A stretch of DNA of 64,000 nt from a virus. Positions 12,910 through 57,759 of the stretch are shown one piece after another. Location of the stretch: positions 1-64,000 of IMG/VR virus record IMGVR_UViG_3300048033_001096; one strand, written 5' to 3'. Position 1 is the first letter of the stretch. Each line of letters begins with the position of its first letter. The position numbers and the translations under genes were made by a program. Below the pieces are notes generated by a model that was not told the origin of the DNA, did no database searches, and saw only the letters and a program-made list of their open reading frames with translations.

Positions 12910-14331
12910 ATGGCCCTACGATTAAGACGTGGAACAGATGCAGAAAGATTAATTGTAATCCCGTTACAAGGAGAATTAATCTACACAACAGATACTAAAA
13001 AATTATATGCTGGCGATGGCGCAACAGCAGGTGGTATTCTTGTTGGACCCACAGAAGCAGACGGTTTTACAAATTTAGTTGATGACACAACACCACAATT
13101 AGGTGGTAATTTAGATTTAAACGGTAATAATATTACAGGTACAGGTAATATTGATATAGACGGTACTATTACTGCTACAGGCGTAGTAAACCTAGGCGAC
13201 GACGATGCTGATATTGTTAATGTAAGCGGTGTGATTAACTCCTCACTAAGACCTGCATTAGACGGCGAGTACAACTTAGGATCTAGTCAGCGCAGATGGA
13301 ATACAGTTTGGGCAGAAGGTGGTCAGATTACTGGTCAGTTAACTGCTGAATCAGTATTTATAGACAGAATTGTAAGTTCTGCTAGTACACTTCTTTACGA
13401 TTCAAACACTGATACATTAAGTGCTACTAATGTAGATGCTACAACATTTACAGGCGCTTTATCAGGTAACGTCACAGGTGATTTGTCCGGTAATGTTACT
13501 AGTTTAGGAACTTCTCAATTTGCACAACTAGAAGCAGACAGTGTTACATTAAGTGGAGGTACAATAGACGGAGTTACTATTGGCTCCGATGTTAACGTTC
13601 CGGCAACAAATATTACAGGAAGAGAAATTACAGCAACTATTGGTTTTGCTGGCGTATTAACTGGACAACTATTTGGTAATAGTACTGGTACACACTTAGG
13701 TGATGTTAAAGGTTCAGTTGTAGCAGACGATTCTACACTACTTGTAGACGGCATCGAAGGTAAATTAACTGGTGATTTAACAAACAACAGAATTACTTCT
13801 TCAAGAGTAGAGTTAAATCGACTAAAACTAGAAGGTACAGATATTCAAGGCGACGATGTTGGATTAGCAATTGTTTCAGAAAAAGATAACTTTACGTCGA
13901 ACTTTGATACGTTTACTATTACAGGCTATAATGACACTAACGAAGGTCAAGTTATGTCATTTATCAGACATAGAGGTACCCAAGCTGCACCAAGTGCTTT
14001 ACAAGATGGCGATATTATTAATGCATTGTATTGGTTTGGTGCAGATGCAGATGCAAATCCTGCTGTATCAGTTGTTGCTGGTGCTGTAGTAGACGGAACA
14101 CCAACCTCAGGCGTTACTCCAGGGGCATTCCAAGTTGTTACATGGAACACTTCAGGCGTTCCGACTGTTGGATTAAAAATTAAAAATAATGGTGTAATAG
14201 AAGTTGCAGATAACACTGTTGCAGCAGGAGCAAATCCAGGAGATGTTGACGATAGTGCTGTTGTCGAGTATTTACAAATTACAGTAGGCGGTACATCTTA
14301 TGCAATGCCTTTATATGCAATTCGTCCATAA
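12910..14331 (+). CDS. Tail fibre or virion structural protein
   Basis: N-terminal LRLRRGT...GELIYTTDTKKLYAGDG fibre-attachment (Mtd_N/hyaluronidase-type) motif; DTTPQLGGNLDLNG; Gly/Thr-rich GNVTG repeats. Confidence 0.8.
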   Translation: MALRLRRGTDAERLIVIPLQGELIYTTDTKKLYAGDGATAGGILVGPTEADGFTNLVDDTTPQLGGNLDLNGNNITGTGNIDIDGTITATGVVNLGDDDADIVNVSGVINSSLRPALDGEYNLGSSQRRWNTVWAEGGQITGQLTAESVFIDRIVSSASTLLYDSNTDTLSATNVDATTFTGALSGNVTGDLSGNVTSLGTSQFAQLEADSVTLSGGTIDGVTIGSDVNVPATNITGREITATIGFAGVLTGQLFGNSTGTHLGDVKGSVVADDSTLLVDGIEGKLTGDLTNNRITSSRVELNRLKLEGTDIQGDDVGLAIVSEKDNFTSNFDTFTITGYNDTNEGQVMSFIRHRGTQAAPSALQDGDIINALYWFGADADANPAVSVVAGAVVDGTPTSGVTPGAFQVVTWNTSGVPTVGLKIKNNGVIEVADNTVAAGANPGDVDDSAVVEYLQITVGGTSYAMPLYAIRP

Positions 14332-15191
14332 GCATTTTTAAATTTTTCAGGCTTAAATCCGGAGTAATGTTTTTTAAGAAGTGTTACATCCGGATTTCGT
14401 CTTTTTACGCTTCCGTTAAGTCCATCTTTAATAATCCAAGGTACATTTTTTATACCTAGTGTTTCTGCAATTATATTTGCAGCATCGAGTATCTTTATTT
14501 CTTCATCGGACCCTACGTTAATAATTTCGTTCGAAACATTTCGAACATTAATTAGTGCGTCAACTGCATCTGCTACATAGCAAAAACTTCTAGTTTCATT
14601 AGCGCCAATAAGTTCGTAGTTACCTTGTTTTAACTTTTCTGCAATATCTTTGACAAAATGTCCGTTACTACTATGTTCGCTAAACACATTAAAAAATCGT
14701 ATTATAAGATAATCTATATTACTATTTGTAAGATAATTTTCGCCTACTAATTTTCCTATCCTATAACTCCATCGAGGGTTATGTATATCTTTTATTGTAA
14801 TGTCTGTTTGTTCTGCAGTGGGGTAAACGTCAGTGCCTGCAACAATTTCACTAGAAGAAGCATATATTAGCTTACAAGCAGGATTTTGTTGTACAAAATT
14901 AAAGATAGCAAAATCTGCTTCAATGTTACTTTGCATTAGTTTATTAGGAATATCATAAAAGTATTTTGTGCCATTTATATTACCCATATGGAATATATAG
15001 TCAAAATCGTTTTCAACTTCTTTAGTATATTTACAAATGTCAATTGATTCAAATATATCACAATCAGGTATATTTTTAGACCTAAATCCGTTGTCAACAC
15101 CTACTACTTCAAATCCGTGTTGCTTGAGTTGTTTGGAAAGTTCTCTTCCAATTAATCCGCTAGCACCTGTTACTAAGACTTTTTGATCCAT
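14298..15191 (-). CDS. NAD-dependent nucleotide-sugar epimerase/dehydratase (UDP-GlcA decarboxylase-like)
   Basis: TGASGLIG, YASSSE, PRWSYRIGK (YxxxK), RFFNV, TRSFCYV, RRNPD. Confidence 0.85.
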   Translation of the reverse strand: MDQKVLVTGASGLIGRELSKQLKQHGFEVVGVDNGFRSKNIPDCDIFESIDICKYTKEVENDFDYIFHMGNINGTKYFYDIPNKLMQSNIEADFAIFNFVQQNPACKLIYASSSEIVAGTDVYPTAEQTDITIKDIHNPRWSYRIGKLVGENYLTNSNIDYLIIRFFNVFSEHSSNGHFVKDIAEKLKQGNYELIGANETRSFCYVADAVDALINVRNVSNEIINVGSDEEIKILDAANIIAETLGIKNVPWIIKDGLNGSVKRRNPDVTLLKKHYSGFKPEKFKNAYGRIAYKGIA

Positions 15192-15910
15192 TGTGTATTC
15201 AACTCTCTAATGTGTTTAAACCAGTTTTGATCAATGCCGTGTGCATCTAATGTTTCAATAAGGAAGGTTAAATCCTTAGGCAAGCACTTGCCGCCGAACC
15301 CTCTTGTGCCGTCATGTCCAGGAACCTCCATGTATGTTTGATCCTGCTGAATTTTAAAGAACATGTCTTTAACTACATCGTAGTCTGCACCTACACTTTG
15401 TGCTAGATCATAAAATACATTTGCAAATGCAATACGAACTACGGCAAAGTTATTAGCAAACATCTTTACTAGTTCTGCTTCATCTGTAGCGCACTCGTGT
15501 ATTTCTTCGTCTTCTAACCACTCTGGTAAAAAGTCTGCAACATCATAACCTACAATCAAAGGACGTTTTAAACAATCTGTATCCCAATAACGCTCACGCA
15601 AGAATTCTGGAATATAAATGATAGGTCCAACTTGTGCTTGTATCCGTGTACATGCCCCTAATGGCAATGTGCTACGAATAATAATTTTTACGTTTGAATT
15701 GTGTTCTTGTAGTTCTTTTATTTCGTTAATGATAGTTTTAATGTCATCGTCTGTATTTGTAGGAATACAAATAAAAACTGTATCTGCATTGTAAATAATA
15801 CTTTTGTCAACATCAAACATTATATCGTATACAATTGCTTTTTCATCTTTAAGCAATCCTTTATGGGTTGCTTTGCCTACATAGCCGTATCCTAAAATTC
15901 CAAATTTCAT
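15173..15910 (-). CDS. UDP-glucose/GDP-mannose dehydrogenase family protein (short, lacks the C-terminal domain)
   Basis: GYGYVG, FICIPT, IRST, PEFLRE and GFGGKCLPKD. Confidence 0.9.
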   Translation of the reverse strand: MKFGILGYGYVGKATHKGLLKDEKAIVYDIMFDVDKSIIYNADTVFICIPTNTDDDIKTIINEIKELQEHNSNVKIIIRSTLPLGACTRIQAQVGPIIYIPEFLRERYWDTDCLKRPLIVGYDVADFLPEWLEDEEIHECATDEAELVKMFANNFAVVRIAFANVFYDLAQSVGADYDVVKDMFFKIQQDQTYMEVPGHDGTRGFGGKCLPKDLTFLIETLDAHGIDQNWFKHIRELNTQWIKKS

Positions 15911-16392
15911 TTAAATGTACTCACTTGCGCTGTGTGAAAAGAAAGATTACTTGCATTCACAGCATAATGCATTTCGTGTCCTGTAAATTTCCAAACATCG
16001 CCAGCGTTCCATTGTGAAATAATATGATCTTTAAAAGGCACAGCTTGTCCAAATTCCCATTTTTCTAAGAAAATTAAATATCTATAACAGTCGTCTAGTT
16101 CTACGTTGTGCTCCTGTCTTAGTGTATAAAATGTATCTTTGTGTGTTGGTAGTATTACATTAGGTTGTATGCAAGTCCAGCTTACTGACGCTTGTGTTGC
16201 GTCTAAGGCATCTTTAAATTGTTCTGCACACGGCAATTCTTCATTAAAACTTTGCAATAAGAAACCTGTATTATAATACTTGCGATTTAAATGATCAAAG
16301 TTTTTTGCTACAAAAGGAACTTCTCTAGCGTATGTATGTGTTGCTAAGTCTTCTTTCCAAAAGTTATTTAGTTTTGTTACGTATCTAGGCAT
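15907..16392 (-). CDS. Non-heme iron hydroxylase (Asp/Asn beta-hydroxylase-like cupin)
   Basis: LPTHKD (HxD) and distal HYAVN. Confidence 0.6.
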   Translation of the reverse strand: MPRYVTKLNNFWKEDLATHTYAREVPFVAKNFDHLNRKYYNTGFLLQSFNEELPCAEQFKDALDATQASVSWTCIQPNVILPTHKDTFYTLRQEHNVELDDCYRYLIFLEKWEFGQAVPFKDHIISQWNAGDVWKFTGHEMHYAVNASNLSFHTAQVSTFK

Positions 16393-16394
16393 AA

Positions 16395-17321
16395 CTATCC
16401 CTTTATATGATTTAGTATATATTCTTTATTTGGTAAATTAGTTATACTTTTTATTAAAGTTAACAATTTATCTTTTTCTTTTATATTTACAATATCTAAA
16501 TGAGTAGGATAAGTTAATACGTTTACAGTCCAATCTAAATCCATTATTGAAATAAATTCAGCTAAACTAGGAAATCCCTTCCAGTTGTTACAGTGTAATA
16601 CACTGTTTACACTTATTTCAAATTTTAATTTTTTAACTTGTTGGATAAAGGATAAAACATTTTCCCATTTACTACCACTACGTACTTTATTGTTTAATTC
16701 ACCATAGCCGTCAATACTAACAATAAACGAAACTAATTTAAATTGTTTTAAAAGTTTAATAGTTTCAACATCGAGCATAAAAGTTCCATTAGTATTGTAA
16801 ATTACAGATACCTCTGTCTTATTTGTTACTTGTTCTAAAACTTTATAATGACGTTTGGTCATTAATGGCTCACCGCCTAAAAATAATATTTTATCTACAG
16901 TATCTGGAACTGAATTAAAGTCCTTTGTTGACCTAATATGATATGCTGGTGGTTTATCTGGATTTTTAATCTTAGACCATTCCGAACTAAAATCTTCAAA
17001 GCAACCGTCGCATGCTAAATTACAAATGTTATCTAATCCTAATTCTAAAAATTTTAGTTCGACAGTATCAGTATCATAGATATTATTAAATTGTTCTCTT
17101 AAACTTTGTTTACCATTTGCTTCTTCATAGTAACATTTTTCACATCCTGATATATATTTGCCAGCACTACTAGCTCTACGCAATTCTTTATATTTGTCAG
17201 AATGCAATATATCTTCTACATTGCCGTCAAAAGTTTGTATGTCTTCTTTGAAACGGCAACAAGGATATATTTTATTATTATTCCTTAAATTAGTATGTTT
17301 CCAAAACGCTGCGCATTTCAT
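16395..17321 (-). CDS. Radical SAM enzyme with N-terminal Cys (twitch-like) module
   Basis: CNLACDGC, GGEP, TNG, SIDG; N-terminal C...PCC...CEKC. Confidence 0.9.
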   Translation of the reverse strand: MKCAAFWKHTNLRNNNKIYPCCRFKEDIQTFDGNVEDILHSDKYKELRRASSAGKYISGCEKCYYEEANGKQSLREQFNNIYDTDTVELKFLELGLDNICNLACDGCFEDFSSEWSKIKNPDKPPAYHIRSTKDFNSVPDTVDKILFLGGEPLMTKRHYKVLEQVTNKTEVSVIYNTNGTFMLDVETIKLLKQFKLVSFIVSIDGYGELNNKVRSGSKWENVLSFIQQVKKLKFEISVNSVLHCNNWKGFPSLAEFISIMDLDWTVNVLTYPTHLDIVNIKEKDKLLTLIKSITNLPNKEYILNHIKG

Positions 17322-18394
17322 AGTAAATGTCCAAATCCTGTTTTATTAAAGTAGTGATTAAGTTCTGCACTACTAGCATTTAACGTTTTTAAAATTCTAT
17401 CATTTTCTTTTGCTAAATTGAAAAAATGAGTTTTGTTATATGCTACATCTTTAGAAAAGTTAACTCTATTATACAAGATATATTCTAAATTGTCAACTAA
17501 TAATTTAAGTCTTTTAGACTCGTCCTTTACTGTAGCATACTCTGGATAAGGCAAGTAATTTTCAAATGTTTTAAATCCTAGATCTTTAATATATTCAAAC
17601 ATTTGTACATTGCCAGCAAACAAAAACGGATGCCCTTGTACAAACGCCCGATATGTTTTTTCAGTAAGAAATTTGCTGTTGTTATTGTTGTCACCCGGAT
17701 GTCCTTCAGATATAATACTTAGACTAGTATTAGCATATACAGCAGGATCGATCCAAGATGAATTGTTTGTCCATTCAGTTGCTACAGGATTTTTTTCAGT
17801 TCCGTATGTTTTAGATTTTTCATATACATTGTCAATCTTACGTTCTGCAAATTTTATAAAATCATAATAATCTTTTGTTGAAGGGAAATATTGTAAACAG
17901 TTAGTTTTTTGTTCTAGTGTCCAAGGAGTAAAAAAGCTCCACTCTGCATATTGTAATAAGTTTCTTTTGTACAATTCATATAACAATCCTATACGATTTG
18001 GTCTGTCAGGAACTCCGCCAAGAAATAAAAATTTATTAGTATTATTATAGTTATATGTAGTTGTATCTTTATAACTATTATATACAGTATGCAAATTAAA
18101 GTTAAATGGTATTGTAGTACATTTAACTTTGTTATTATGACTCTGTCCAGTTACAATTTTAACTTCTATTTGTAAAGAATTAGCATAATCTACAATATCG
18201 TTATATAGTTGATTCCAGATATTATTATTTTTATAAAGAAACCCGTCAGCAAGCATTAATCCCAAAATACTACTATACCCTTGCTTAGATGCTTCAAGTA
18301 TACTATTTTTTAGTTTTTTCTTTGTTGTATTTTCTAACGAATCATTTTCTTTTGAAAATACTTCAAAGTTTATTATCTTACTGTTTGTCCTCAA
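17318..18394 (-). CDS. Putative glycosyltransferase-like protein
   Basis: C-terminal SIISE...FLTEKTYRAFVQGHPF...LGFKTF segment resembles the GT10/GT-B EK motif. Confidence 0.45.
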   Translation of the reverse strand: MRTNSKIINFEVFSKENDSLENTTKKKLKNSILEASKQGYSSILGLMLADGFLYKNNNIWNQLYNDIVDYANSLQIEVKIVTGQSHNNKVKCTTIPFNFNLHTVYNSYKDTTTYNYNNTNKFLFLGGVPDRPNRIGLLYELYKRNLLQYAEWSFFTPWTLEQKTNCLQYFPSTKDYYDFIKFAERKIDNVYEKSKTYGTEKNPVATEWTNNSSWIDPAVYANTSLSIISEGHPGDNNNNSKFLTEKTYRAFVQGHPFLFAGNVQMFEYIKDLGFKTFENYLPYPEYATVKDESKRLKLLVDNLEYILYNRVNFSKDVAYNKTHFFNLAKENDRILKTLNASSAELNHYFNKTGFGHLL

Positions 18395-18812
18395 CTACAA
18401 CACCCCAACTAAACATGTTAAATACTCTTTCAACAATATAAAACAATGTCATGTTAGATGCTGCTTGCATTAACGCAAAACTAGTTGCTCCGCTGGTTGT
18501 TGCCTTAAGTACAAAAGTAGCAACGATAAATGCTGCTATCATTGTAAGACTTCTATAGATAACAGTTTTAATTAAGCTACGCCAATGGTTATCTTTACCA
18601 TCTTTAAATCGAAGCCAAGCAGTAAACAGCCAAGCTCTTTCATGAATGTAATAAATTGTTGTTCCGAGAACAATAACTATAGCGCCAACTTGACTTGCTT
18701 CTGCCCAGGTAGCTCCCATAACATAAACTGATATTAACATAATTGCTAATACAGCTAATGCTCTATAAATTACAGCTTTAGCTATTGTTCTTGCGTGTGT
18801 TTCTTTAATCAT
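18378..18812 (-). CDS. Membrane protein with two tandem DUF2061-like repeats
   Basis: R(T/S).(A/I)K.VIYR...(Y/F)YI.ER occurs twice; four hydrophobic segments. Confidence 0.7.
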   Translation of the reverse strand: MIKETHARTIAKAVIYRALAVLAIMLISVYVMGATWAEASQVGAIVIVLGTTIYYIHERAWLFTAWLRFKDGKDNHWRSLIKTVIYRSLTMIAAFIVATFVLKATTSGATSFALMQAASNMTLFYIVERVFNMFSWGVVVEDKQ

Positions 18813-18823
18813 TATTTTTTCTC

Positions 18824-20290
18824 CTAGTAAATATGATGTCTGAAATATTCTCTAATTAATTCGTTATCTATTTTAAATCCATAATAAAAATTTTGCTTTA
18901 CTATCTGCATTGCCGTTTTTACTTTTACTTGTTTAAAGTTAGATTCAACTAAATTAACATAAGTTTCAATTTCTTCTGCTGTTTTACTATCCCAATGTGC
19001 TATGTATAAGCAATGGTTAACACTATCGGCTACTATATGATAGTCTTCATAGGACTTATTTAATTCGTCTATAGTTGACATTTTTATATCTTCGCCATTG
19101 ATACGCAATAAATCAGCTCTACCTTGATGCGCCCAAAATCCATTTTCTATTTTAAATACATCACTCATAGTTTCTTTTCTATTGTACACTGGCAAATCAA
19201 CTATTAGTTTTCCGTCTTCTGCTAATTCCAAGTTATACCAGTCATCAAATATAGTGTATAACCTCGAATCTTTATCCCAGTGTTCTTTATCAAATACATT
19301 TATAAACAACGGCCCTAGTGTTTCATTAGAGCCAAATAAGCTGGTTACATTTTTAATAATGCCATCGCGAGCTGCAAGTTTTATACTTTCTAATGTATAT
19401 GTTAACACTAAGATACGTAACTTTGGCCATGTTAAGTTATTTTCTTTACTAGCTGCTATGAATTTTTCTATTAAGAACGGATATGGAAAAGAAACTGTAG
19501 ATAACTTTTCTCTGTACGGTTCTAATTGCTGTACTAAATCATCCATAGGATAATCTTCGTTAATTGCATAAATTACATGCTCAGTAACATTATCATTTGC
19601 TAGTACAGGAAATAGTGTTACGGCTGCACTAGCACCGTGATTGAGATTTTTAACATGTAGTGCTACATCTTCGAACATCCACATATTACGTTCAGCCACA
19701 CCACGTATAAATTCGTGTGTATGTTCAATAACTTTAGGTTTACTAGTTGTACCGCTGCTAGTTGCTTTAATTAAAATGTCAGTAGGCTTTGGAAATATTC
19801 CTGCTGCTCTATTAAAATCTTCTTTACTTGTAACTGTAAAATCTATATCGTCGTCTGCAAGACTATATGTTCTGTCAGATATATTTTCAAAATATGTATA
19901 CTTTGCAAATGCTTCAGGATCTGTTTCAGCATACTTGCGAGTAAAGTCATGTAAGAAAATATCTATCGGTAATAGTGCTTCTGTTTTTGGATCTTTGTAC
20001 CCTGAGTCTTTAAAATCGTCTGCACGTATATAATCAACTACTGCAATTTTTAACCCAAGTTCTGCCGATGCATATATGCAAGCAAGATAGTCAATATCAA
20101 GAGTGTGACTTCCAATTAAAATTGTTTCTTGAGATTTAGCATTACATTTATAAGTTAGTGCGTATTTCCAAAGATTGATTTTATCAACAAGTTCTGTTTT
20201 ACCGTACTCACTACGAGTAAAATTATATCTTTCTACCAAATTAACCGCACGAAAGTTATCACTTATAAAGTGTCTTGTAATTGTAGTCAC
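18824..20290 (-). CDS. Adenylate-forming (ANL/AMP-binding) enzyme
   Basis: TSSGTTSKPK P-loop, FGSNE, and GRADLLRING hinge; GTG start with AGGAG RBS. Confidence 0.75.
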   Translation of the reverse strand: MTTITRHFISDNFRAVNLVERYNFTRSEYGKTELVDKINLWKYALTYKCNAKSQETILIGSHTLDIDYLACIYASAELGLKIAVVDYIRADDFKDSGYKDPKTEALLPIDIFLHDFTRKYAETDPEAFAKYTYFENISDRTYSLADDDIDFTVTSKEDFNRAAGIFPKPTDILIKATSSGTTSKPKVIEHTHEFIRGVAERNMWMFEDVALHVKNLNHGASAAVTLFPVLANDNVTEHVIYAINEDYPMDDLVQQLEPYREKLSTVSFPYPFLIEKFIAASKENNLTWPKLRILVLTYTLESIKLAARDGIIKNVTSLFGSNETLGPLFINVFDKEHWDKDSRLYTIFDDWYNLELAEDGKLIVDLPVYNRKETMSDVFKIENGFWAHQGRADLLRINGEDIKMSTIDELNKSYEDYHIVADSVNHCLYIAHWDSKTAEEIETYVNLVESNFKQVKVKTAMQIVKQNFYYGFKIDNELIREYFRHHIY

Positions 20291-20315
20291 AGGAATCTCC
20301 TATACTTCATATTTC

Positions 20316-20323
20316 TATTTATA
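20316..20323 (-). promoter_or_regulatory. T4-type late promoter TATAAATA
   Basis: Exact motif on the - strand, about 26 nt upstream of 20290. Confidence 0.6.
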
Positions 20324-20330
20324 TGCGCAG

Positions 20331-20903
20331 TTAATGATCTGTCGGTATCTTGAATGCTTCATTTTTTACTTTTACAAAGTAATTATAGCGATCTTCGTAT
20401 GTACTGTTAAATCCTCCATGATAAGATTGAGGATCAAAAATAATTGGAGTATCTTTTTCGTTAACATACAACTTATCGTTAACTACAGAATGTCCTTTTC
20501 CATTCAGCGGAACTAATATGTTATAATGAGGCGGATCGCCTATGTCGTCTGCATTTGTCCAATTATCGTAATGCAATGGAAGTAAGCAGCCTGGCTCTAA
20601 AATATTAATTGCTATGCGTTCTAAGCCTATCATAGTCTTTGCATAATTAATCATATCTTGAGCTGCTTCGTGTAACTCAGGGTATAATACATAATGGGTG
20701 TCTTCATACTCAAACGGTAATACTATAACAGAGTACCATCCTTTTAATAAAGGTTCATCATTAGCTTTACCTACATCAACACCAAATGGCTTTACATCAA
20801 TTTTTTCTATTAGTTCATGTATTAACTCTGTTAACCTATCCATTTTATGTAAGTCAAGATAACATTCATTTGGTAATACATCGGGACGTCTTAGTGTGCT
20901 CAT
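20331..20903 (-). CDS. Asp/Asn beta-hydroxylase-like dioxygenase
   Basis: ILEPGCLLPLHYD and FDPQSYHGGFN..EDR. Confidence 0.75.
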   Translation of the reverse strand: MSTLRRPDVLPNECYLDLHKMDRLTELIHELIEKIDVKPFGVDVGKANDEPLLKGWYSVIVLPFEYEDTHYVLYPELHEAAQDMINYAKTMIGLERIAINILEPGCLLPLHYDNWTNADDIGDPPHYNILVPLNGKGHSVVNDKLYVNEKDTPIIFDPQSYHGGFNSTYEDRYNYFVKVKNEAFKIPTDH

Positions 20904-20945
20904 ATTATTACTTATCTAAGTGGTTATTCTATAAGTAATAATATG
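20901..20945. repeat. Perfect 15-bp inverted repeat covering both divergent start codons
   Basis: CATATTATTACTTAT (20901-20915) and ATAAGTAATAATATG (20931-20945). Confidence 0.85.
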
Positions 20946-29101: not shown

Positions 29102-29102
29102 C

Positions 29103-46188: not shown

Positions 46189-46194
46189 TATATT

Positions 46195-48673: not shown

Positions 48674-49979
48674 TGCTATCCCACCATTCCTTGCCTGCGT
48701 CACTTAGTGTGTCTCTAAATGTGACATCTTGTGTTCTAATACTTTCTAAGAACAATATGTTCTTCTTACCTCTGCGCCAGCCGTCTGCATAGTTAATGTA
48801 TTCTTCTTCAAATGTTTTGCGCTCTAGCATATTTTCAAGTGTTTCTTGATAGACACGAGTTTTATGTGTTACTCTAGGCTTGATATAGTCCAACAGTTTG
48901 TGTATTTGTTCATCTAATACATGTCTCGGCAAACACATAGGACTCATAAGTACACTAGGATCAAATGCAAAGGTAATTTTAAAGTAGCTCTTTACATCTA
49001 GCTCGGTAACTACGTCGAACATACGCTGTAAATCAAAAAGTCCTGGTGTTGTTAGTGTAACATCAAACACCATTGCGTCATTGCCGTACTTGTCAATAAG
49101 AAACATACCATCTTTAAAGTTTTGTAGCCACTCGTTCCATTTGAGTCCTGTTCTAATGTACTCGCCAACAGCACCTACACCGTCTATACTGGCACAAATA
49201 TTAACACGTTTAAAGTTGTCTAACATTTCATACAGTTTATAGTCTTTGTAGTGTGTCCTACTCAAGTTTGTATTGTAGCGTACAACTACATCTTGGCTTT
49301 TTCCTTCATTAACTAGCTGTTGCATAATGCGCCAATGTATGTCATACATAAGTGGCTCGCCGCCTACCCAGTATAACTCCTCTACAATGCCTTTATCAAC
49401 TGCTGTTTGTAGTTCTGTTTCAAGAACTTCCTTTTGAAATGTAGCAATCTTCTTTCGTGTATCAGGTTGCATCCATTTTTCACGATCAAGGTTGACTACA
49501 TTGTGTTTTATCTTTTCTGTTTCCCAACTAGAGCTTAGTTGCTCGCCACACATACGACATTTAAAGTTGCACAAGTTTGAAATACGATAGTCATAACTTA
49601 TAGGCTGCATAGTTGTATAACCATCAGAGTCGGTTTTTGCAATAATATCGTCGATTTTGTGTGGGAAAAGTGTGTTAGTAAAATAATTTTTGTATGTATG
49701 AAGATTTAGTACTTGATTATTGCAAACATCGCATTGACTAATCTTCTCTCCTGCAAGAATGCGTTTTCTAATGTCTTTCATGTATTCGCTATTCCAGTGT
49801 TCTTCTAGACTTACTGGTGCAAATTCTGCATTGTCGTTGTCGCCTGCGTCTATATATTGCTTTTGAAAACTTGCATCTTCACGACTTGCACAACACAATC
49901 TACGCTCGCCTTGCGGGCTAACGTATGTATGTGTCCAAGGTGCTGTACAAAAGTATGGTCCTAAGTTTTTATCAGTCAT
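48666..49979 (-). CDS. Radical SAM enzyme with N-terminal Cys module
   Basis: FCTAPW...LCC...CDVC; CNFKCRMC; VGGEP; SIDG. Confidence 0.9.
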   Translation of the reverse strand: MTDKNLGPYFCTAPWTHTYVSPQGERRLCCASREDASFQKQYIDAGDNDNAEFAPVSLEEHWNSEYMKDIRKRILAGEKISQCDVCNNQVLNLHTYKNYFTNTLFPHKIDDIIAKTDSDGYTTMQPISYDYRISNLCNFKCRMCGEQLSSSWETEKIKHNVVNLDREKWMQPDTRKKIATFQKEVLETELQTAVDKGIVEELYWVGGEPLMYDIHWRIMQQLVNEGKSQDVVVRYNTNLSRTHYKDYKLYEMLDNFKRVNICASIDGVGAVGEYIRTGLKWNEWLQNFKDGMFLIDKYGNDAMVFDVTLTTPGLFDLQRMFDVVTELDVKSYFKITFAFDPSVLMSPMCLPRHVLDEQIHKLLDYIKPRVTHKTRVYQETLENMLERKTFEEEYINYADGWRRGKKNILFLESIRTQDVTFRDTLSDAGKEWWDSIE

Positions 49980-50973
49980 TTATATGTTGTAATACCAAAT
50001 CTTCATAATCTTTGTCAAATCGTCCATAAGAATAATAATAAGAGTCTTCGATACCATCTTCAATTAATGTAATTTTGTCTACATCATCAAATTTTCCTTG
50101 AATATGTTGTTTTACAAAATCATGGTCAATGTCAACAACAGATCCTAATTTTGCAAACCCAAGTCTTAAAGACTTATCATTAATATCTAATCCTTGATTA
50201 ATTATCCAGTTATTAAAATCATTTATAGTATCTTGCCCCATGTCTGGCGATAATCGTAATAAACAGTCTCCAGACAAAAGTTTTATAGGTTCTACATGCT
50301 CGTCATCTAATTCTTCGTCTTCTTCAACAAATGCTTCAAAGTGTGTTTTACCAATTTGAGGATATCCTAACAGTACATCTCCAAACTTAACATCTGTTCT
50401 AAATAACTCATCAAACACACTAGGTAATTTTTCTAAATTTTTAGGTGCTCGGTGCCAAGATACATTAACATGAATTCTTCCATCACCGGTTTGTTGTAAA
50501 ACTGTATGTAATTCATGTACTTCAAGATTTAAACGACAAATTGCAGCACGTACTTCTGGTGTTGCAATATACATATAATTTGATGTATTGTGTGCAGGGC
50601 CTGAAAGTATTGGAAAATAATTATGTATAGTATTCATTTTTTTATTATTAGGACCGTGTTTGAAATCTTCCAAACTTAATCTTTCAGAAATATCAGGATT
50701 TTTGCTTACAGAAAAATGTTTGTTACTGTTTTCAACAAAGTCGTATTTAGAGATAGTATCTAATGTACTATTAATCTTGTCTATCATTTCTTCTACAGTT
50801 AAAACACTTTCTCCCATAAAAAGATGTTCTTTTTTAAGAAAGGCTTTAGATTTTAGTTCGTATTTAAATCTATCAAGCCATAAATCAACAGCAGGATGTT
50901 GATCTAACTTAATGCTTACTTCCATAGGCTGAATGGACGAATCTCTGCTATTTCTAAATCTTAGTTTTATCAT
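49972..50973 (-). CDS. Hypothetical protein
   Basis: 333-aa ORF within the radical SAM run; no recognised motif. Confidence 0.8.
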   Translation of the reverse strand: MIKLRFRNSRDSSIQPMEVSIKLDQHPAVDLWLDRFKYELKSKAFLKKEHLFMGESVLTVEEMIDKINSTLDTISKYDFVENSNKHFSVSKNPDISERLSLEDFKHGPNNKKMNTIHNYFPILSGPAHNTSNYMYIATPEVRAAICRLNLEVHELHTVLQQTGDGRIHVNVSWHRAPKNLEKLPSVFDELFRTDVKFGDVLLGYPQIGKTHFEAFVEEDEELDDEHVEPIKLLSGDCLLRLSPDMGQDTINDFNNWIINQGLDINDKSLRLGFAKLGSVVDIDHDFVKQHIQGKFDDVDKITLIEDGIEDSYYYSYGRFDKDYEDLVLQHIND

Positions 50974-50986
50974 CTTTAACTTTCTA

Positions 50987-52435
50987 TTAGTCGTATGCTG
51001 CCAATGGTTGCTCTATATTTTTATTGTCCGGCTTTAGTATCCAACCTTCTTTTTCAGCAAGTTCCATAATACTTGCATCAGTATCTGGAATGCTTTCTAC
51101 CCAGTCTGTTAGTATTTTAGGAAATACATGAATACTTTTATTTCTACGAACATCGTACTGCTGGTAAAACGTTTTAAAATCACGCCAAAGTGTAGTAGGA
51201 TTACTTGTACGTCTATGCGGAGCATCTACAGTAACAAGATAATCTATTAGTCGTTCAATACTTGCCTTTTCAAATTCGTGCCAACCTTCTTTATGCTTAT
51301 TTTCTTCCCACCAGGTACTTAATTTATCATGACAATAATCTTTAATATGATTAGGTAATGCTAGTGGACTTTGGAAACTTGGAAAACGTAATAAGTTTAA
51401 ACTTACAGTTGGCGTTCTGCTTTGTGTAAGTTCTTTTAGTTTGTATACTTCATCTAAAAAGTCAGTAATACTAAACAAGCACAAACTGTTAATTGTCATC
51501 ATAATATGTACACCTTTAGTATTTGCTTCTGTTAATACACGCTTGATGTTAGTTAACCATTGCTCGTACACTAGTCCGTCACGAATGTATTCTGCTTGTG
51601 CGCCTACTGCTTCGCAACTTGTATATAATTCAAAGTGATTCATGCCTTGTGTTTTAGCAATCAACTTGTCAACAATATCTTTTTTGGCAATTAAGTTGCT
51701 GTTAATTGCAAAGCGCATATCACTATCTTGTTCGTTAAACCAATCAAATAGTTTCCAAGTGTTAGCACTCATTAAAGGTTCGCCACCAGTAATACGCAGT
51801 TCTTCTAAACTATCCGACAATCCATTATCCCACCATTTCCAAAATGCTTGAATGTAAGGATTGTCTTCGTCGTCTTTGTAGGGCTGTGTCCACGAACCGT
51901 CTTGACGGAATGCGCCGGCGCCGTCGCTTACAAGATTAGTGTATTCACCGTTCTTTTTAATGTCTTTGGCCCATGTAGTAGAAAAACTAGCATTACAATA
52001 CGAACATGCAAGATTACAAGTTCTATCAAATGCAATTTCAAATGTTTTTAGATTAACATTTTCGTGGTGATCCATATCATACGCACGTTGTAATTCTTCG
52101 TCTGAATAGATAATGCTCTTAAAAGTTCTATCACTAACAGCATCTTTTTTCATATCTTCCATTTTCCAACAATATTCGCACTCGGCTGGACGTTCGCCTG
52201 TTTGCATCATACGGCGCATTTCTTTTTTGTGCTTAGTATTGTGAATAGCGGTGTAGTCTTCTTCTACTTCAATTACTGGAATTTTATGTGCCGGCGGGTG
52301 ATGACAACTTGCTGTTGTGCCGCTGCCTAACCAAGTAGTTGCGTTAAACCATTTGGCTCCACAAAAACTTTTACTTTTACTATCTAGTACTCTATCTCTA
52401 TACTGTTGTAGTGTTTCGTCAGATTTTTTAGCCAT
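50987..52435 (-). CDS. Radical SAM enzyme with N-terminal C/CHHP module
   Basis: FCGAKW...SCHHP...CEYC; CNLACSYC; ITGGEP. Confidence 0.9.
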   Translation of the reverse strand: MAKKSDETLQQYRDRVLDSKSKSFCGAKWFNATTWLGSGTTASCHHPPAHKIPVIEVEEDYTAIHNTKHKKEMRRMMQTGERPAECEYCWKMEDMKKDAVSDRTFKSIIYSDEELQRAYDMDHHENVNLKTFEIAFDRTCNLACSYCNASFSTTWAKDIKKNGEYTNLVSDGAGAFRQDGSWTQPYKDDEDNPYIQAFWKWWDNGLSDSLEELRITGGEPLMSANTWKLFDWFNEQDSDMRFAINSNLIAKKDIVDKLIAKTQGMNHFELYTSCEAVGAQAEYIRDGLVYEQWLTNIKRVLTEANTKGVHIMMTINSLCLFSITDFLDEVYKLKELTQSRTPTVSLNLLRFPSFQSPLALPNHIKDYCHDKLSTWWEENKHKEGWHEFEKASIERLIDYLVTVDAPHRRTSNPTTLWRDFKTFYQQYDVRRNKSIHVFPKILTDWVESIPDTDASIMELAEKEGWILKPDNKNIEQPLAAYD

Positions 52436-53801
52436 TCCATTCCTCTAATAAGTGTGCATATTGCGGAAATATTTCTGCAAAATCTTTATTTCTTCTCTTA
52501 TCGTATGTATGTATGTATCGTACAAAGTCTTGTCTGTGTTCTATTGCTGGCTGCGATGTACGAAGGTAGTCACACAAACGTTTTATCTGATCCCATTCTT
52601 CAAGATATAGTCTAGCATACTTTTCTTTTGAATAATATTTTAACCATTGTTCGCACATCAGTTGAATAGTATTTGCTGTTTTTTCTCTATCTTCTATATC
52701 TAATAGTGTACATTGTAAATGCGGAGGCCAGTGCATAATATTAATACTTAAAGGAATTCTATTATGTTCAAAAGTTGTATTATATAATTTACGAAAATCC
52801 ATAACTAACATTATAAAATCAAGAAATGTTGATAAACTTAAAATATTAACAGTTGTCATAATTGCAACTGTGCTTTTAGTTTCTTTTAAAATACGCTCTG
52901 TATTTTCAATCCAACTGTAATAATTTAGTCCATCTCGTGCGTACTCAGCTTGTCTGCCTGTGCTTTCTAAACTTGTATACACATCTACTTTAACACCTAC
53001 TTCTGCAAGAGCATTAATTTTTTCAATTAACTTGTCAATTAATTTAGTTTCTACACATGCATTGGTATTGATTGCAACATCTAAGCCTTTGCGTGGATTT
53101 TCAATTAGATAGTCTAGCAACTTCCATGTATCTTTTGACATTGTAGGCTCACCGCCTGTAATGCGCAATACTTTTAAATGCGGAAGTGCATCAGGAAACC
53201 ATTTCCAAAATGCTTCTACATAAGGATTATGTTCTCTATTTAGATAAGGCATTTTGCCTGATTTTTCTAAGTAGTCTAAATGATGGGCGCCGTGCTTAGT
53301 TGGGTACGGTCCGTGCTGTTTTACATCTTCCATCCATTTGCTACTGATTTCGGGCGAACAGTACGCACATGCAAAATTGCAAGCATTACTAAACGAAACT
53401 TCTAAATAACTTGGATATACGTTTTCTGCAGGGTCACTAGATGCTATTTCTTCAAATCTATCCCATGCCCACGTATCTGATGTTTTATAATGTCTATCAC
53501 TAAAATATGTTTTATCTAAATCTTCAATCTTCCAACAGTAACCGCACTCGCTAGGACGTTCTCCGTTTAGCATCTTAGCACGTTGTTCTTTTTTAAACTT
53601 GCTGTTGTGTAGTGCTGCTGGATCTGCTTCAATTTCTTCTAGTGGAATCTTATGAGGTGCAGGATGGTGACAACTGTGGTTATAACCGTTCTGAAGCATA
53701 AGTGTAGTTTGTAGCCATTTAGCCGTACAGAAACTACAACTAACGTTGTTTATCTTTTCACGTTTCTCTTCTAGTATTTTTATACGTTCTTCGTTACTCA
53801 T
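52428..53801 (-). CDS. Radical SAM enzyme with N-terminal C/CHHP module (tandem paralog)
   Basis: FCTAKW...SCHHP...CGYC; CNFACAYC; NPYVEAFWKW; ITGGEP. Confidence 0.9.
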   Translation of the reverse strand: MSNEERIKILEEKREKINNVSCSFCTAKWLQTTLMLQNGYNHSCHHPAPHKIPLEEIEADPAALHNSKFKKEQRAKMLNGERPSECGYCWKIEDLDKTYFSDRHYKTSDTWAWDRFEEIASSDPAENVYPSYLEVSFSNACNFACAYCSPEISSKWMEDVKQHGPYPTKHGAHHLDYLEKSGKMPYLNREHNPYVEAFWKWFPDALPHLKVLRITGGEPTMSKDTWKLLDYLIENPRKGLDVAINTNACVETKLIDKLIEKINALAEVGVKVDVYTSLESTGRQAEYARDGLNYYSWIENTERILKETKSTVAIMTTVNILSLSTFLDFIMLVMDFRKLYNTTFEHNRIPLSINIMHWPPHLQCTLLDIEDREKTANTIQLMCEQWLKYYSKEKYARLYLEEWDQIKRLCDYLRTSQPAIEHRQDFVRYIHTYDKRRNKDFAEIFPQYAHLLEEWNG

Positions 53802-54298
53802 TTTAAAAGATACTTAAAGTTTTGTGTTGTACTGTTAATAGCAATTTGTTTGGCTCCGTTTCTAATATGAAAGTGTGTTGCCATAGGAGTGAGCGGAGAG
53901 AGTGTAACTAGGTTCTTTACTTCTGGTTTTGTTTTTATATGTTCTGCAAGTTTGTGTATCAGCTCTTTTCCTGCACCACGTTTACGGCTCCAAATAGTAT
54001 ATGCTATTGCAGTGTCTGCATCATTTTTATAAAATGCATTTTGACTCATTAAGTCAAGTTCTTTTACACTAGTAGGAATATCGTTAGTGTATGCTACACA
54101 AACAACACCTTCTATGTCACCTTCATACTTGAGCCCGTAAATTTTACGTCCACAAGCTGTTCGCCATTCTACATCAAGTTCAGGACGTACAGGATCTTCT
54201 GTTACATCTATATCTTCTAACTCAACTAGTTCTGTACCTTTAACCCATCTAAAAAATCCGTCTAGTGTACCTTTATATTTTTCTACATTTTTATTCAT
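53798..54298 (-). CDS. GNAT-like protein resembling the malonyl-CoA decarboxylase catalytic domain
   Basis: VCVAYTNDIP, DTAIAYTI, GAGKELI and VTLSP motifs. Confidence 0.55.
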   Translation of the reverse strand: MNKNVEKYKGTLDGFFRWVKGTELVELEDIDVTEDPVRPELDVEWRTACGRKIYGLKYEGDIEGVVCVAYTNDIPTSVKELDLMSQNAFYKNDADTAIAYTIWSRKRGAGKELIHKLAEHIKTKPEVKNLVTLSPLTPMATHFHIRNGAKQIAINSTTQNFKYLLK

Positions 54299-55191
54299 TT
54301 AGCTCTCCGTAAAATTCTAGCACTGTTTTGATACACTTGTTTAAAGAACTTACTTTGCTCGTCGTCTAACGGTTTAGTAGAAATATCAACTCCTGTGCCT
54401 TTAAGTATTTCTAAACCTAAACGCTCTGCTTCTTCCTGTGGGTTTAAATTTTTTACATCACTTTCCCAAAAGTTGTTTAGCCATTCAAAGTCACGTACAT
54501 TAGCATAGTCCCAGTCTGTACAGTTTGTCATATAACAACCTTGTCGTGCGCCTAGTATGCTCCACATACCATTTTCTACATCTGCACCTATTTGACTCCA
54601 TATAAGCAGTCTGTCATAATTCTGCCACCATACTGTGCGTAAGTCATCTACTTTTGCGCCTTGATCCAAAGACATCTTAACGCCTTCCCTAAAGCCAGCC
54701 CGCCAAGCCTGCCAAGGTGTCGCATTAGTATAAGAAACACTGTAGTTTTCGTTAAACTGATAATATTTGTTGTCGAAGCAGAATTCAACTTTGCCACGTT
54801 CGTCTCCTTCTTCTGAGTTTTCGTGCGTTTTCATATTGTGTACAAATTTACGTGTCCACATTTTAAGTCCGCCGTTTCCGTACATTAATCCATTAACATG
54901 TACTTTGCCGCACCAACTAAACACATGGTCAGGAGTAACACCTAATTCTTCAATGTCCACTTCTTGGTTAAGAAACTCTTGGTCAATAATATTATCAGCA
55001 TCTACTGTAACAAAGTATTCTGTTTCAGACAAGTCAGCACAGGCTTTATGTGCAGCATCACTTCCGTGTACGCCGTGTACTCGTTTAGCCCATGGAATTT
55101 TGCTACACAAATCTGCATAGTTTTTTTCAGCATTAGGCTCATCGTAACTAAGGAATATTATATCTTGATCTACTATTTTAATTTTTGACAT
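54295..55191 (-). CDS. GT-A glycosyltransferase-like protein
   Basis: IIFLSYDEPNA...RVHGV.G...FVTVDADN (DxD), YGNGG.K, AWRAGFRE; paralog of the C-domain of 44254..46188. Confidence 0.7.
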   Translation of the reverse strand: MSKIKIVDQDIIFLSYDEPNAEKNYADLCSKIPWAKRVHGVHGSDAAHKACADLSETEYFVTVDADNIIDQEFLNQEVDIEELGVTPDHVFSWCGKVHVNGLMYGNGGLKMWTRKFVHNMKTHENSEEGDERGKVEFCFDNKYYQFNENYSVSYTNATPWQAWRAGFREGVKMSLDQGAKVDDLRTVWWQNYDRLLIWSQIGADVENGMWSILGARQGCYMTNCTDWDYANVRDFEWLNNFWESDVKNLNPQEEAERLGLEILKGTGVDISTKPLDDEQSKFFKQVYQNSARILRRAK

Positions 55192-55748
55192 TAACTTTCC
55201 ACTATATGATTATAATTTTCAAAGGCTTTACCACAGTATACACTCACATCCTGTCTTTGAGCAACTTCTTTTTTTGTATGGTTAATAACTTTTCTATCAC
55301 CATTCATAATATCAGAAAAGTTTACTTCAAGTGTATCTAATAACACATTAGGATCATTTTCGTCTGTTACAAACAGTCTATGAATTTTATCTTTATAGTA
55401 AAGCGTACTTTTTAATATTTTTTTCAACCCGTCTGATGCACTTGCGGTCCAGGTGCCTTCGGTAATATTTTGCGTAATATAAAAAACTAAATTATGATCA
55501 ATTTTGCCTTTTACTAATTGATGTATACTTTTATCAACATCAAAATCTTCTAAACTTGAGTGTTTGAATTTTAGTTCAAACATAGAATCAGTTTCGCTTG
55601 GAACTACTATATAATCTTCAAAATTCTTTCGACATTCAGCAAAATCATACAATAACGATTTATCAATTTCCATATACGGAGAACTTTCATCTAAAACATT
55701 TCCAGCCTTCCATATAGTACCGTTTTCTCTAAAGTTAAGATAATACAT
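55191..55748 (-). CDS. Hypothetical protein
   Basis: 185-aa ORF coupled on both sides. Confidence 0.75.
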   Translation of the reverse strand: MYYLNFRENGTIWKAGNVLDESSPYMEIDKSLLYDFAECRKNFEDYIVVPSETDSMFELKFKHSSLEDFDVDKSIHQLVKGKIDHNLVFYITQNITEGTWTASASDGLKKILKSTLYYKDKIHRLFVTDENDPNVLLDTLEVNFSDIMNGDRKVINHTKKEVAQRQDVSVYCGKAFENYNHIVES

Positions 55749-56571
55749 AATCTAATTTCTCTATAATAGTATCTGTTAAGAACTCGTCTTCAACATAGTG
55801 CAATAATCCTGTTTGTAAAAAATTACCTAATAGTAAATTTCCATCATTTCTATAATATTTTCCAACTACAGATGTCCACTTTTCTGGTACATTTTTCCAA
55901 TTTTGTACATGAGGTTTCATGTGTGTAAATGTAATATAGCTGTTTGGACTTGTAATCTCTTTTTCATTTCCTAGTATTTTACAAGCAATAGCTGCACAAA
56001 CATCAACACTACACCATTTTTGATATCTTTCTTTAGCATATTTGCTGTAAAAAAGTTCCCAGTTATTCATTATAATTTCTAACAAGGTATAAAATTCTTT
56101 TGCAGTATCACCTTTTTTAAAATAATGCAATGCGCTGTATAAGTTAGGTAAATTATTAGCATCAAACGTTTTTCTATAAAATCTATTAGTTACAACTTCA
56201 TTTCTATAAGTTTTAACATTACTAGTAAAAAATAAATTGTATTTGTCTAATTCTTTCCACCAATGTGTTATATCACTTAAAATAAGCATATCTGCTTCAA
56301 GTACAATTGTTTGTTCGTATGGACTAGCATGATACACCTTCCATCTATTTTGTATCTTCCAATCTGATTGTAGAGCGCCGTCAGACCAAGGGATAGGAAT
56401 AATCTTATCAAATACTTTTTGCCATTCGTCTGGCACTATATCATTAGTAATTAAACTAATGCGCTGTCCAGTATTATACTTGTGCAAACTTAATGCTAAA
56501 GCATGAGCTTGTTTTATATAATCTGTCTTTCCGTTATTTTGAGCTAACAAACAAAACCCTTTACTCATCAT
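55735..56571 (-). CDS. Glycosyltransferase-like protein (GT-A, GT8-like)
   Basis: ALALSL, ISLITN, SPYEQTIVLEADML, YSALHYFKK. Confidence 0.65.
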   Translation of the reverse strand: MMSKGFCLLAQNNGKTDYIKQAHALALSLHKYNTGQRISLITNDIVPDEWQKVFDKIIPIPWSDGALQSDWKIQNRWKVYHASPYEQTIVLEADMLILSDITHWWKELDKYNLFFTSNVKTYRNEVVTNRFYRKTFDANNLPNLYSALHYFKKGDTAKEFYTLLEIIMNNWELFYSKYAKERYQKWCSVDVCAAIACKILGNEKEITSPNSYITFTHMKPHVQNWKNVPEKWTSVVGKYYRNDGNLLLGNFLQTGLLHYVEDEFLTDTIIEKLDYVLS

Positions 56572-57415
56572 TAAGTGCCTCGCTTATTGCCCTATCTAAA
56601 CTAAACTTATTCATAATATGTATATTAGCTTTATTAATTGTAGACAATACATAATGTCCTTTCCAATCTTTTTTATCTAACATAAAAACATATTTTTCAT
56701 CATTCATTTTAACTAATACATCATTATCGGTAGTAAACCACAATTTGCCTGGCATTGCTTTTGGCCAATTTGTTTTTTGATTACCGTTCATTAAATGAAT
56801 TGCAATACTAAAACTAAAATCGTTACGATATGTTTTACTTGGTATTTGATATACAAGACGATAATAAAGCCAATTTTCTTTAATATGTTCGATTAAATTA
56901 AAAAATAGTTCTGTACGTTTTGACTTTTTAAAATAAAATACAGTTGCCCAGTAAAAATCAACACTTCGGTCACTAATTTTATCAAATGTATCAGTTCGTT
57001 CTGGATTTAAATCTTGGATATCTCTAAAGATTAAAAAATCATCTTCAGTATCAAATGCATTATTTAATAAATTATTTCCTACAATAAAATCAGTGTCCAT
57101 TACAATAGTTTCATCATACGGAGTAATATTATAAACTGTACTCCTATCATGATTACGCCATTCTAATATTCTATCACTCATTGTACCGTCTCTATAAATT
57201 CGTTTTTGATTACATTCTTTCCACTCTAAAGAAACAATAGTATCAATATATTTTTTGTAATAAGGATAATTTTCTTTAAGGTATGCAGGATTATCTGTTG
57301 CTATTGTAACAGACAGTCCTAAATGTTTTTTGATTTTTTTTGCACAAAAAATAGCTTGTTTGACATAGTCCATTGTGTGATTATTTTGCGCAAATAAAAC
57401 TACACCCTTTGTCAT
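56561..57415 (-). CDS. Glycosyltransferase-like protein (GT-A), paralog of 55735..56571
   Basis: GVVLFAQNN..DY.KQA, TPYDETIVMDTD (DxD), WATVFYFKK. Confidence 0.7.
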   Translation of the reverse strand: MTKGVVLFAQNNHTMDYVKQAIFCAKKIKKHLGLSVTIATDNPAYLKENYPYYKKYIDTIVSLEWKECNQKRIYRDGTMSDRILEWRNHDRSTVYNITPYDETIVMDTDFIVGNNLLNNAFDTEDDFLIFRDIQDLNPERTDTFDKISDRSVDFYWATVFYFKKSKRTELFFNLIEHIKENWLYYRLVYQIPSKTYRNDFSFSIAIHLMNGNQKTNWPKAMPGKLWFTTDNDVLVKMNDEKYVFMLDKKDWKGHYVLSTINKANIHIMNKFSLDRAISEALNDE

Positions 57416-57759
57416 AAATTAATTAATCCTTCAACAGATCGATTACTTTTAATTTCGTTATAGCTATCTAAGTATTCATATGTTGTAGTAAAATAGATAT
57501 CAAGTATATCGTCTGTAAACTTTTGTAAATCTTCTACTTTAATCGGAGTTTCGTTGTCGTCTATTATAATTGCTTCAGTTTGTTTATTTTGTATTAAAGT
57601 GTGACAGAATGTAATAAGGTCTCTGTTAACTGTAAATTTTCCACCATTTAAATAATGTACACAATTTTCTAAAAATTGTTCGTGTATAATACGCTTTTGA
57701 TTATTCAACGTTGTCATGTAATTTGAAAAATCTAATGCATTTTGTAGCCGTTCGTCCAT
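57412..57759 (-). CDS. Hypothetical phage protein
   Basis: 115-aa ORF with GGAGG RBS. Confidence 0.85.
   Translation of the reverse strand: MDERLQNALDFSNYMTTLNNQKRIIHEQFLENCVHYLNGGKFTVNRDLITFCHTLIQNKQTEAIIIDDNETPIKVEDLQKFTDDILDIYFTTTYEYLDSYNEIKSNRSVEGLINL

Follow-up and report, generated by a model that had tools for sequence, protein, structure and literature searches.

Core genes and island architecture

The window is a stretch of 64,000 nucleotides at the start of one viral contig (IMG/VR record IMGVR_UViG_3300048033_001096; 169,231 bp, about 46% complete). An island of 49 open reading frames (ORFs) occupies positions 14298-57759. Nearly all ORFs abut or overlap, as an earlier note on this DNA had described for about 49 tightly coupled genes; only five gaps exceed 15 bp, including the 60-bp right border. 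Six genes are constant among related phages and the rest are gained and lost; the locus is therefore described as a core with an optional load, the 15 radical S-adenosylmethionine (SAM) proteins of the window being the top of the range. Island genes are labelled by their left coordinate in the window (e.g. 55735 for the gene 55735..56571).

The core lies on the minus strand, headed by a perfect sigma70-type promoter motif, TTGACA-17-TATAAT (57784..57812, minus strand). It comprises two GT8-fold paralogues, two GT-A-fold paralogues and two genes without family. GT8-like paralogue a (55735..56571) yields a model of pLDDT 91, with GlyE, UGGT, LARGE1, glycogenin and LgtC all tied at Z 14-15, and matches glycogenin by profile (E 2e-4). 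D94 and H258 are invariant; EAD is present in the window copy, mostly DxD in relatives. Paralogue b (56561..57415) carries DTD as its DxD motif and aligns with paralogue a in hhalign (prob 99.8, E 1e-27). By fold, DxD and C-terminal His, both are predicted GT8-type GT-A glycosyltransferases. The most conserved core gene, 54295 (54295..55191; DAD), is modelled (pLDDT 84) with a minimal GT-A/nucleotidyltransferase fold, at Z 8-9 tied between GT2-type enzymes and MobA/IspD-type nucleotidyltransferases. Its paralogue 44254 (44254..46203) matches PF00535 weakly (E 0.007) and is associated with a sigma70-like site at 46195-46223. It bears degenerate N-terminal repeats, variable in number, with homologues of about 225 to 680 amino acids (aa). 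Core gene 1 (57412..57759; 115 aa) and the fast-evolving core gene 4 (55191..55748; 185 aa) gave no match in family searches. A likeness of 57412 to DUF4376/tail-assembly proteins is unsupported by searches. The predicted folds of the core enzymes do not by themselves specify an acceptor.

Radical SAM proteins are confined to the island: a PF04055 profile search of the whole 169-kb contig returned exactly 15 matches, all inside it, 14 above cut-off and one below. CxxxCxxC is intact in 15 of 15, and no internal stops were found in the 15 genes, in agreement with the number first noted. Nine are of the N-terminal-twitch type, five of the C-terminal twitch type (with C-terminal cysteine sets), one B12-binding. 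Nine island proteins score 196-380 bits on NCBIfam NF033640 (N_Twi_rSAM; curated cut-off 170 bits, N-terminal twitch cysteines required ahead of CxxxCxxC), each with at least four N-terminal Cys. The paralogues are at most 38% identical among themselves, and most have orthologues at 41-93% identity in other phages. By these identities they are old subfamilies, and recent duplication within the island is rejected as their origin. None of the eight maturase models tested for ribosomally synthesised and post-translationally modified peptides (RiPPs) comes near cut-off for the island radical SAM proteins. With no island gap longer than 60 bp, a separate RiPP precursor gene would not fit there; a distant precursor would escape.

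The accessory genes are, from right to left, as follows. Directly behind 54295 lies a protein with an MCD C-terminal domain (53798..54298, minus strand; GNAT-fold, PF05292). The block 47495..53801 (minus strand), placed between the two core GT-A genes, holds N-terminal-twitch radical SAM genes 52428, 50987, 48666 and 47495 and the 333-aa protein 49972 (NF033640; dN/dS 0.05-0.09). Next is a member of a family with a GT10-like motif (46204..47562, minus strand), a paralogue of 17318, with TATAAATA at 47629-47636. For 17318 and 46204 the likeness to GT10 fucosyltransferases is one of motif; PF00852 and other Pfam or PDB profiles give no support. Beyond core gene 44254, the block 37098..44270 contains six radical SAM genes (43209, 42257, 40258 and 39296 on the minus strand, 38413 and 37098 on the plus strand; PF04055/NF033640) and a probable class I methyltransferase (41658-42260). 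A QueC-like PP-loop ATPase (36491..37165, plus strand) matches PF06508 weakly in the window copy and above cut-off in an orthologue. It travels with radical SAM genes 37098 and 38413. The genes folE and queE lie at 2644-4331 of the same window, and a link of the QueC-like gene to deazaguanine is possible by this gene content.

The block 29149..36463 (mixed strands, profile matches) contains a PRMT-like methyltransferase (29149; E 2e-12 to PRMT3), kinase-fold proteins 30101 and 35152, both lacking the catalytic-loop Asp, a putative GNAT (30786), two short short-chain dehydrogenases/reductases (SDRs), a cold-shock domain joined to a prolyl-4-hydroxylase-like domain (33026-34072; 69% conserved in one relative, G001) and four further dioxygenase-like genes. 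The B12-binding radical SAM protein (27620..29101, minus strand; PF02310 and PF04055) stands behind TATAAATA (29103-29110). N-terminal-twitch radical SAM genes 24152 and 25759 and dioxygenase-like 25287 and 26808 follow in 24152..27623 (minus strand; NF033640, HxD motif). Gene 23632 (23632..24168, minus strand) encodes a protein with a signal peptide, the model of which resembles outer-membrane beta-barrels (TM 0.77-0.87, Atlas). It is 55% identical to its relatives, compared with 81-97% for its neighbours, and is seen only in the window genome and its closest relatives. By its model, this outer-membrane protein is possibly a receptor blocker and would point to a Gram-negative host. The left arm (14298..23635, mixed strands) includes an epimerase-type SDR (PF01370), a UDP-sugar dehydrogenase (PF00984/PF03721), three dioxygenase-like genes, radical SAM genes 16395 and 21568, the GT10-motif gene 17318, a DUF2061 membrane protein, an AMP-binding (ANL) adenylating enzyme (PF00501, below cut-off; TATAAATA at 20316-20323) and a 362-aa protein. 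In a hydropathy scan of the island only the DUF2061 protein and the signal peptide of 23632 stand out. The left border is formed by a Mtd_N fibre-like gene (12910..14331, plus strand; PF18454) with a late ATAAATA box, the right border by tail/fibre/baseplate-type genes with late ATAAATA boxes (57820..64000, minus strand), the next fibre-type gene bearing a collar domain.

Most of the enzyme classes named in the earlier note are thus recovered: ten proteins carry HxD and a distal His, of which Pfam supports five, and the UDP-sugar dehydrogenase, the epimerase and the flanking fibre and baseplate-type genes are present as described. Four of its roughly six glycosyltransferase-like proteins are retained (55735 by structure and profile, 56561 and 44254 as paralogues, 54295 by fold); 17318 and 46204 show a motif resemblance. 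The ANL and PP-loop proteins are both found, with weak scores. The MCD C-terminal domain is confirmed; the second methyltransferase (41658) and putative GNAT 30786 have no Pfam match. New here are the outer-membrane protein, the two kinase-fold proteins, the PRMT-like and DUF2061 proteins and the promoter pattern. PHROGs profiles gave almost nothing for ten unassigned island proteins. The island shows neither a scaffold enzyme nor a precursor peptide, and neither a carrier protein nor an exporter.

Conservation and promoter classes in related phages

The contig encodes a major capsid protein with 67-72% identity to its counterparts in Sinorhizobium phage Phosso, Vibrio phage 2.275.O, Pseudomonas phages PA5oct and Paride and Serratia phage BF. 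The MoxR/VWA gene pair, recognised by inspection, is present; Iyer et al. (2021, PMC7824862) report this pair from jumbo phages of group 2.2. The clade is regarded as aquatic because a homologue at 77% identity derives from a Tara Oceans assembly. One close relative (G011) is a complete genome of 357.6 kb.

A scan of viral sequences with the 54295 protein matched at least 599 stretches, of which the best 80 were compared as loci. The order 57412-56561-55735-(55191 position)-54295 together with paralogue 44254 hardly varies (68-74 of 80 loci, absences mostly at contig ends), core gene 1 being present in 70 loci and an ORF at the position of core gene 4 in 73. Identity of 54295 is 46-92% across marine, freshwater-type and Ralstonia phages. 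Tail genes precede the core in 51 of the 52 loci with enough sequence, and the accessory content varies, the two points raised for a synteny comparison in the earlier note. The two GT-A genes are direct neighbours in 48 loci; wherever these contigs reach far enough, the convergent MoxR block follows the cassette directly, and four of these contigs hold no radical SAM gene above cut-off. In 26 loci radical SAM genes are inserted after 54295. Islands of relatives hold 3 to 14 radical SAM genes (whole contigs searched), several nearly matching the window with 13-14; the complete relative has 13 and none outside its island. Near relatives differ in content, lacking the 333-aa gene or the trio of dehydrogenase, epimerase and 16395. 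At the far end of the island a fibre gene is present in most radical-SAM-rich relatives and absent in minimal ones. In minimal relatives the core has ThyX-like or ThyA/DHFR genes as its immediate opposite-strand neighbours (L057:11512-12180, L067:12236-13577).

Among 50,697 phage records the core is matched only by the cultured Ralstonia phage RsoM2USA (MG752970.1). Its ORF354-347 encode, in order, a protein without family, two GT8 proteins, a second protein without family, a GT-A protein, an N-terminal-twitch radical SAM protein, a second GT-A protein and a methyltransferase. The cassette follows a fibre-type gene within the baseplate/sheath block. Identities to the window are 34-46% (ORF354 34% to 57412, ORF350 46% to 54295, ORF347 34% to 41658), and the radical SAM gene behind the GT-A gene is the orthologue of 52428. 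The order is shared, but eight genes stand against the 49 of the window, all annotated as hypothetical; the RsoM2USA paper leaves ORF347-354 undiscussed (PMC8504454). A second N-terminal-twitch radical SAM gene, 58% identical to 50987, lies 90 kb from this core in ORF203-199 (L006:19186-24762), beside three paralogous genes and a carbamoyltransferase-like gene.

For fourteen island genes, comparison with close relatives gives dN/dS of 0.05-0.20, the outer-membrane gene (0.36) apart. The compared genes are under purifying selection. Independent contigs reproduce the left part and both borders of the island; the locus is therefore not a chimera. A scan of bacterial genomes, which detects close relatives only, found one N-terminal-twitch homologue, split in two frames amid housekeeping genes of a Bdellovibrionales metagenome-assembled genome; the GT8 core was not found in that incomplete genome.

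Promoter data are motif matches, not measured starts, and the promoter counts, taken from kindred phages and uncorrected by a tree, do not represent independent samples. The ATAAATA late box occurs in 36 copies, half of them in the 2.6% of DNA that is intergenic; 23 stand ahead of genes, mostly structural. In G011, ATAAATA and sigma70-type sites mark distinct gene sets, the sigma70 set comprising early small, helicase/primase-like, folE/queE and late-sigma-like genes (named by inspection). In the contig of the window, the major capsid gene (106510), with TTGACA-18-TATAAT upstream, is an exception to the early/late split. The core sigma70 site is present in 35 of 53 distinct upstream regions of relatives, none with ATAAATA. 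Adjacent tail genes have ATAAATA in 40 of 43 and 32 of 50 upstream regions and no such sigma70 site. In G011 the -10 box of the core is kept and the -35 is weaker; in RsoM2USA the core carries a TAAATA box like the structural genes of that phage. By its motif the core promoter in aquatic phages is of early/middle type, and a purely late operon is rejected for these phages, the sigma70 core promoter occurring without ATAAATA. A search of the stretch from the tail genes to the core found no terminator, which leaves room for late read-through, as from the late box at 59845. Late boxes are present inside the island at 20323, 29110 and 47636 (TATAAATA). ATAAGTA, which differs from the late box by one base, occurs at all three divergent junctions (20900-20950, 29095-29155, 36455-36500), 12-36 nt ahead of genes. 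Several boxes stand merely 6-12 nt ahead of ATG, suggesting leaderless transcripts.

Candidate functions of the locus

The reading favoured here, given an even chance, is that the island builds a tailored glycan on tail/fibre proteins. The four core glycosyltransferase-fold enzymes and two small partners would place a short glycan on these proteins in the cytoplasm, drawing on nucleotide sugars made by host or phage. The accessory enzymes (sugar dehydrogenase, epimerase, twitch radical SAM enzymes, Fe/2-oxoglutarate (2OG) hydroxylases and methyl-, acyl- and adenylyl-transferring enzymes) would act as an exchangeable tailoring kit altering the sugars and possibly protein side chains, so that each lineage would gain its own surface chemotype. 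Early/middle expression would have the enzymes ready once tail proteins appear. Active glycosyltransferases, a virion-protein acceptor, radical SAM enzymes acting on the glycan and one shared product are what we infer.

This reading is favoured because the enzymes are soluble, the locus is tail-linked, the core is kept across hosts and protein-modifying types are present (PRMT-like, P4H-like, AspH-like). The core stands right behind tail genes in all but one of 52 loci and also in the distant soil phage RsoM2USA, where its box is that of the structural genes. Its retention across marine, freshwater-type and Ralstonia phages suggests, by sequence comparison, a conserved, probably phage-encoded acceptor. 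Island proteins are without membrane segments, two excepted, and the fold of 55735 is common to the protein-glycosylating GlyE, glycogenin, UGGT and LARGE1. Late boxes inside the island and the fibre gene at the far end of most radical-SAM-rich relatives are in keeping with a virion target. Twitch radical SAM enzymes BtrN and NeoN oxidise or epimerise sugars. Megavirinae fibril glycans are made by clade-variable clusters (PMC10117803). In PBCV-1 the capsid is glycosylated by soluble, early-expressed glycosyltransferases (PMC9614988), so early expression is compatible with a virion target. Of the phage pathway for a modified virion glycan proposed in the earlier note, a conserved, tail-linked glycosylation locus with tailoring enzymes is supported, but not the form of one 49-gene pathway, six genes being constant.

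Several points weigh against this reading. The core promoter is sigma70-type in 23 of 23 radical-SAM-rich and 17 of 37 minimal loci, with ATAAATA in none, and in the complete relative sigma70-type sites precede genes for host takeover and replication. The lipopolysaccharide (LPS) enzyme LgtC is as close to the GT8 fold as the protein-glycosylating enzymes are, and an outer-membrane protein is encoded inside the island. Two convergent gene blocks meet at the island, and their junction may be simply a place that tolerates insertions. The analysis turned up neither an acceptor nor a glycosylation motif. The RsoM2USA virion study reports no glycans, and did not look for any.

Some of these points argue for remodelling of the host surface, in which early soluble glycosyltransferases and tailoring enzymes would act at the cytoplasmic face to change precursors of the LPS core/O-antigen or of the capsule. 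The altered precursors would leave by host export systems, and the outer-membrane protein would block the receptor, excluding competing phages. This alternative is unlikely, although consistent with the early/middle promoter, the LgtC-like fold, the fast evolution of the outer-membrane protein, the latent period of RsoM2USA (270 min) and the published reading of pelagimyophage (PMC7029224) and cyanophage (PMC7824862) clusters. It is also consistent with ADP-heptose-pathway-like genes, assigned by inspection, in a second locus at contig 149-152 kb. However, no flippase, polymerase, ligase or membrane glycosyltransferase is seen in the hydropathy scan of the island, strong conservation of the core extends to phages presumably infecting different hosts, the tail linkage is fixed, the RsoM2USA core is under a late box, and the outer-membrane protein is limited to the window genome and closest relatives. 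The second locus (contig 144950-151835) is a tail-linked tailoring locus too; a late box stands ahead of its GT9-like gene and carbamoyltransferase (PF02543/PF16861), faced by epimerase/RfaE-like genes under a sigma70 site.

In a loose toolbox, the core would glycosylate something, and the accessory genes, gathered at an insertion-tolerant site, would independently modify proteins or make a small molecule such as an aminocyclitol/nucleoside-like toxin or signal. The ANL ligase, QueC-like ATPase, B12 radical SAM, kinase-fold and PRMT-like proteins are indeed atypical glycan enzymes; content and order are shuffled, promoter classes are mixed, and RsoM2USA carries its second radical SAM gene far off the core. 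A metabolite has been proposed for a similar cyanophage cluster (Iyer et al., PMC7824862). This explanation is nevertheless improbable, given that neither a scaffold enzyme or precursor peptide nor a carrier protein or exporter is seen, that the complete relative keeps all 13 radical SAM genes within its island, and that the radical SAM protein and methyltransferase flanking the GT-A genes are the same in distant phages.

DNA hypermodification, in which the glycosyltransferases, dioxygenases and methyltransferases would decorate phage DNA bases, is very improbable. The early/middle timing of the T4 glucosyltransferases resembles that of the island core, ThyX-/ThyA-type genes abut the core in minimal relatives, and folE and queE are close by. 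However, the folds are GT8/GT2-like, unlike T4 BGT, and the 100%-complete relative with 13 radical SAM genes has a single ordinary ThyA, no Tet_JBP above cut-off, no C5 methyltransferase and no TGT/DpdA-like match (fast filters may miss divergent copies). A PF01702 (TGT) search of five genomes gave no match; DpdA may escape this model. Published DNA-glycosylating glycosyltransferases adjoin 5mYOX or ThyS (Pyle et al.).

That the locus is a chimera or decayed bacterial cargo, the refutation foreseen in the earlier note, is practically ruled out by synteny in independent assemblies, by purifying selection and stop-free genes, and by phage orthologues up to 93% identical, despite the one homologue in the Bdellovibrionales genome.

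Relation to described systems and significance

Among the closest described systems is the host recognition cluster (HRC) of T4-like pelagi/cyanomyophages, an about 44-kb hypervariable tail-region island with a function proposed there (Zaragoza-Solas et al. 2020, PMC7029224). Shared are GT8-type glycosyltransferases, a UDP-glucose dehydrogenase, radical-SAM cassettes that are gained and lost, and a large variable island in the structural region. The HRC lies between vrlC and gp14, whereas the window island is bounded by fibre genes and the MoxR/VWA block, in a phage with a Rak2/GAP32/PA5oct-like jumbo capsid, and has a fixed six-gene core, 15 radical SAM genes and few fibre genes inside. By gene content it resembles the HRC, yet it falls outside the positional and lineage definition. 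Jumbo cyanophage clusters likewise hold polymorphic sets of glycosyltransferases, epimerases, 2OG-Fe hydroxylases and methyltransferases (Iyer et al. 2021, PMC7824862), but radical SAM enzymes are unmentioned there and the proposed target is the host surface or a metabolite.

Megavirinae (Notaro et al. 2022, PMC10117803) and PBCV-1 (PMC9614988) also decorate the virion by clade-variable sets of soluble glycosyltransferases and nucleotide-sugar enzymes, but are viruses of eukaryotes, with no large radical-SAM set reported there. The PBCV-1 A64R domain scores Z 11.6, below other GT-A enzymes, with no sequence-level homology shown. Mycobacteriophages Che8 and Corndog glycosylate virion proteins by phage glycosyltransferases (Freeman et al. 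2023); as related in PMC11256854 and PMC12619734, two to four such genes are involved, with no tailoring island. Moraphages (PMC12619734) are set apart from the present lineage by the description in that paper. Gtr-type serotype conversion requires a membrane flippase and an integral membrane glycosyltransferase, neither of which stands out in the island hydropathy scan. In the DNA-glycosylation clusters of Pyle et al. the glycosyltransferase stands beside 5mYOX/TET and a C5 methyltransferase or hydroxymethylase, an arrangement not found in the complete relative (by fast filters, which divergent copies may escape). A search of the open literature, covering few subscription journals, gave no description of this core or of so large a radical-SAM load. 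The earlier statement that no characterised pathway is like it holds within this limited search, but tail-linked glycosyltransferase islands with radical-SAM cassettes had been described (PMC7029224).

The locus is real, functional and widespread; its kind is known from the pelagimyophage and Megavirinae clusters, its radical-SAM chemistry is not. Abundant aquatic jumbo phages carry N-terminal-twitch radical SAM enzymes by the dozen, under purifying selection. The function of the NF033640 family is not known, and the locus gives these enzymes a context, not a function. A bolder version of the favoured reading, judged rather unlikely, is that the fixed glycosyltransferase core primes tail/fibre proteins and up to 15 distinct, long-diverged radical-SAM subfamilies, the N-terminal-twitch family among them, perform new radical chemistry on the glycan; a widespread jumbo-phage clade would then diversify its surfaces chemically instead of by sequence. 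The small version of the island in RsoM2USA is a ready test system for the target of a tail-linked glycosyltransferase island and for the reaction of NF033640 enzymes. If the target is the virion, phage glycosylation would far exceed, in complexity and in frequency, what the few mycobacteriophage examples suggest.

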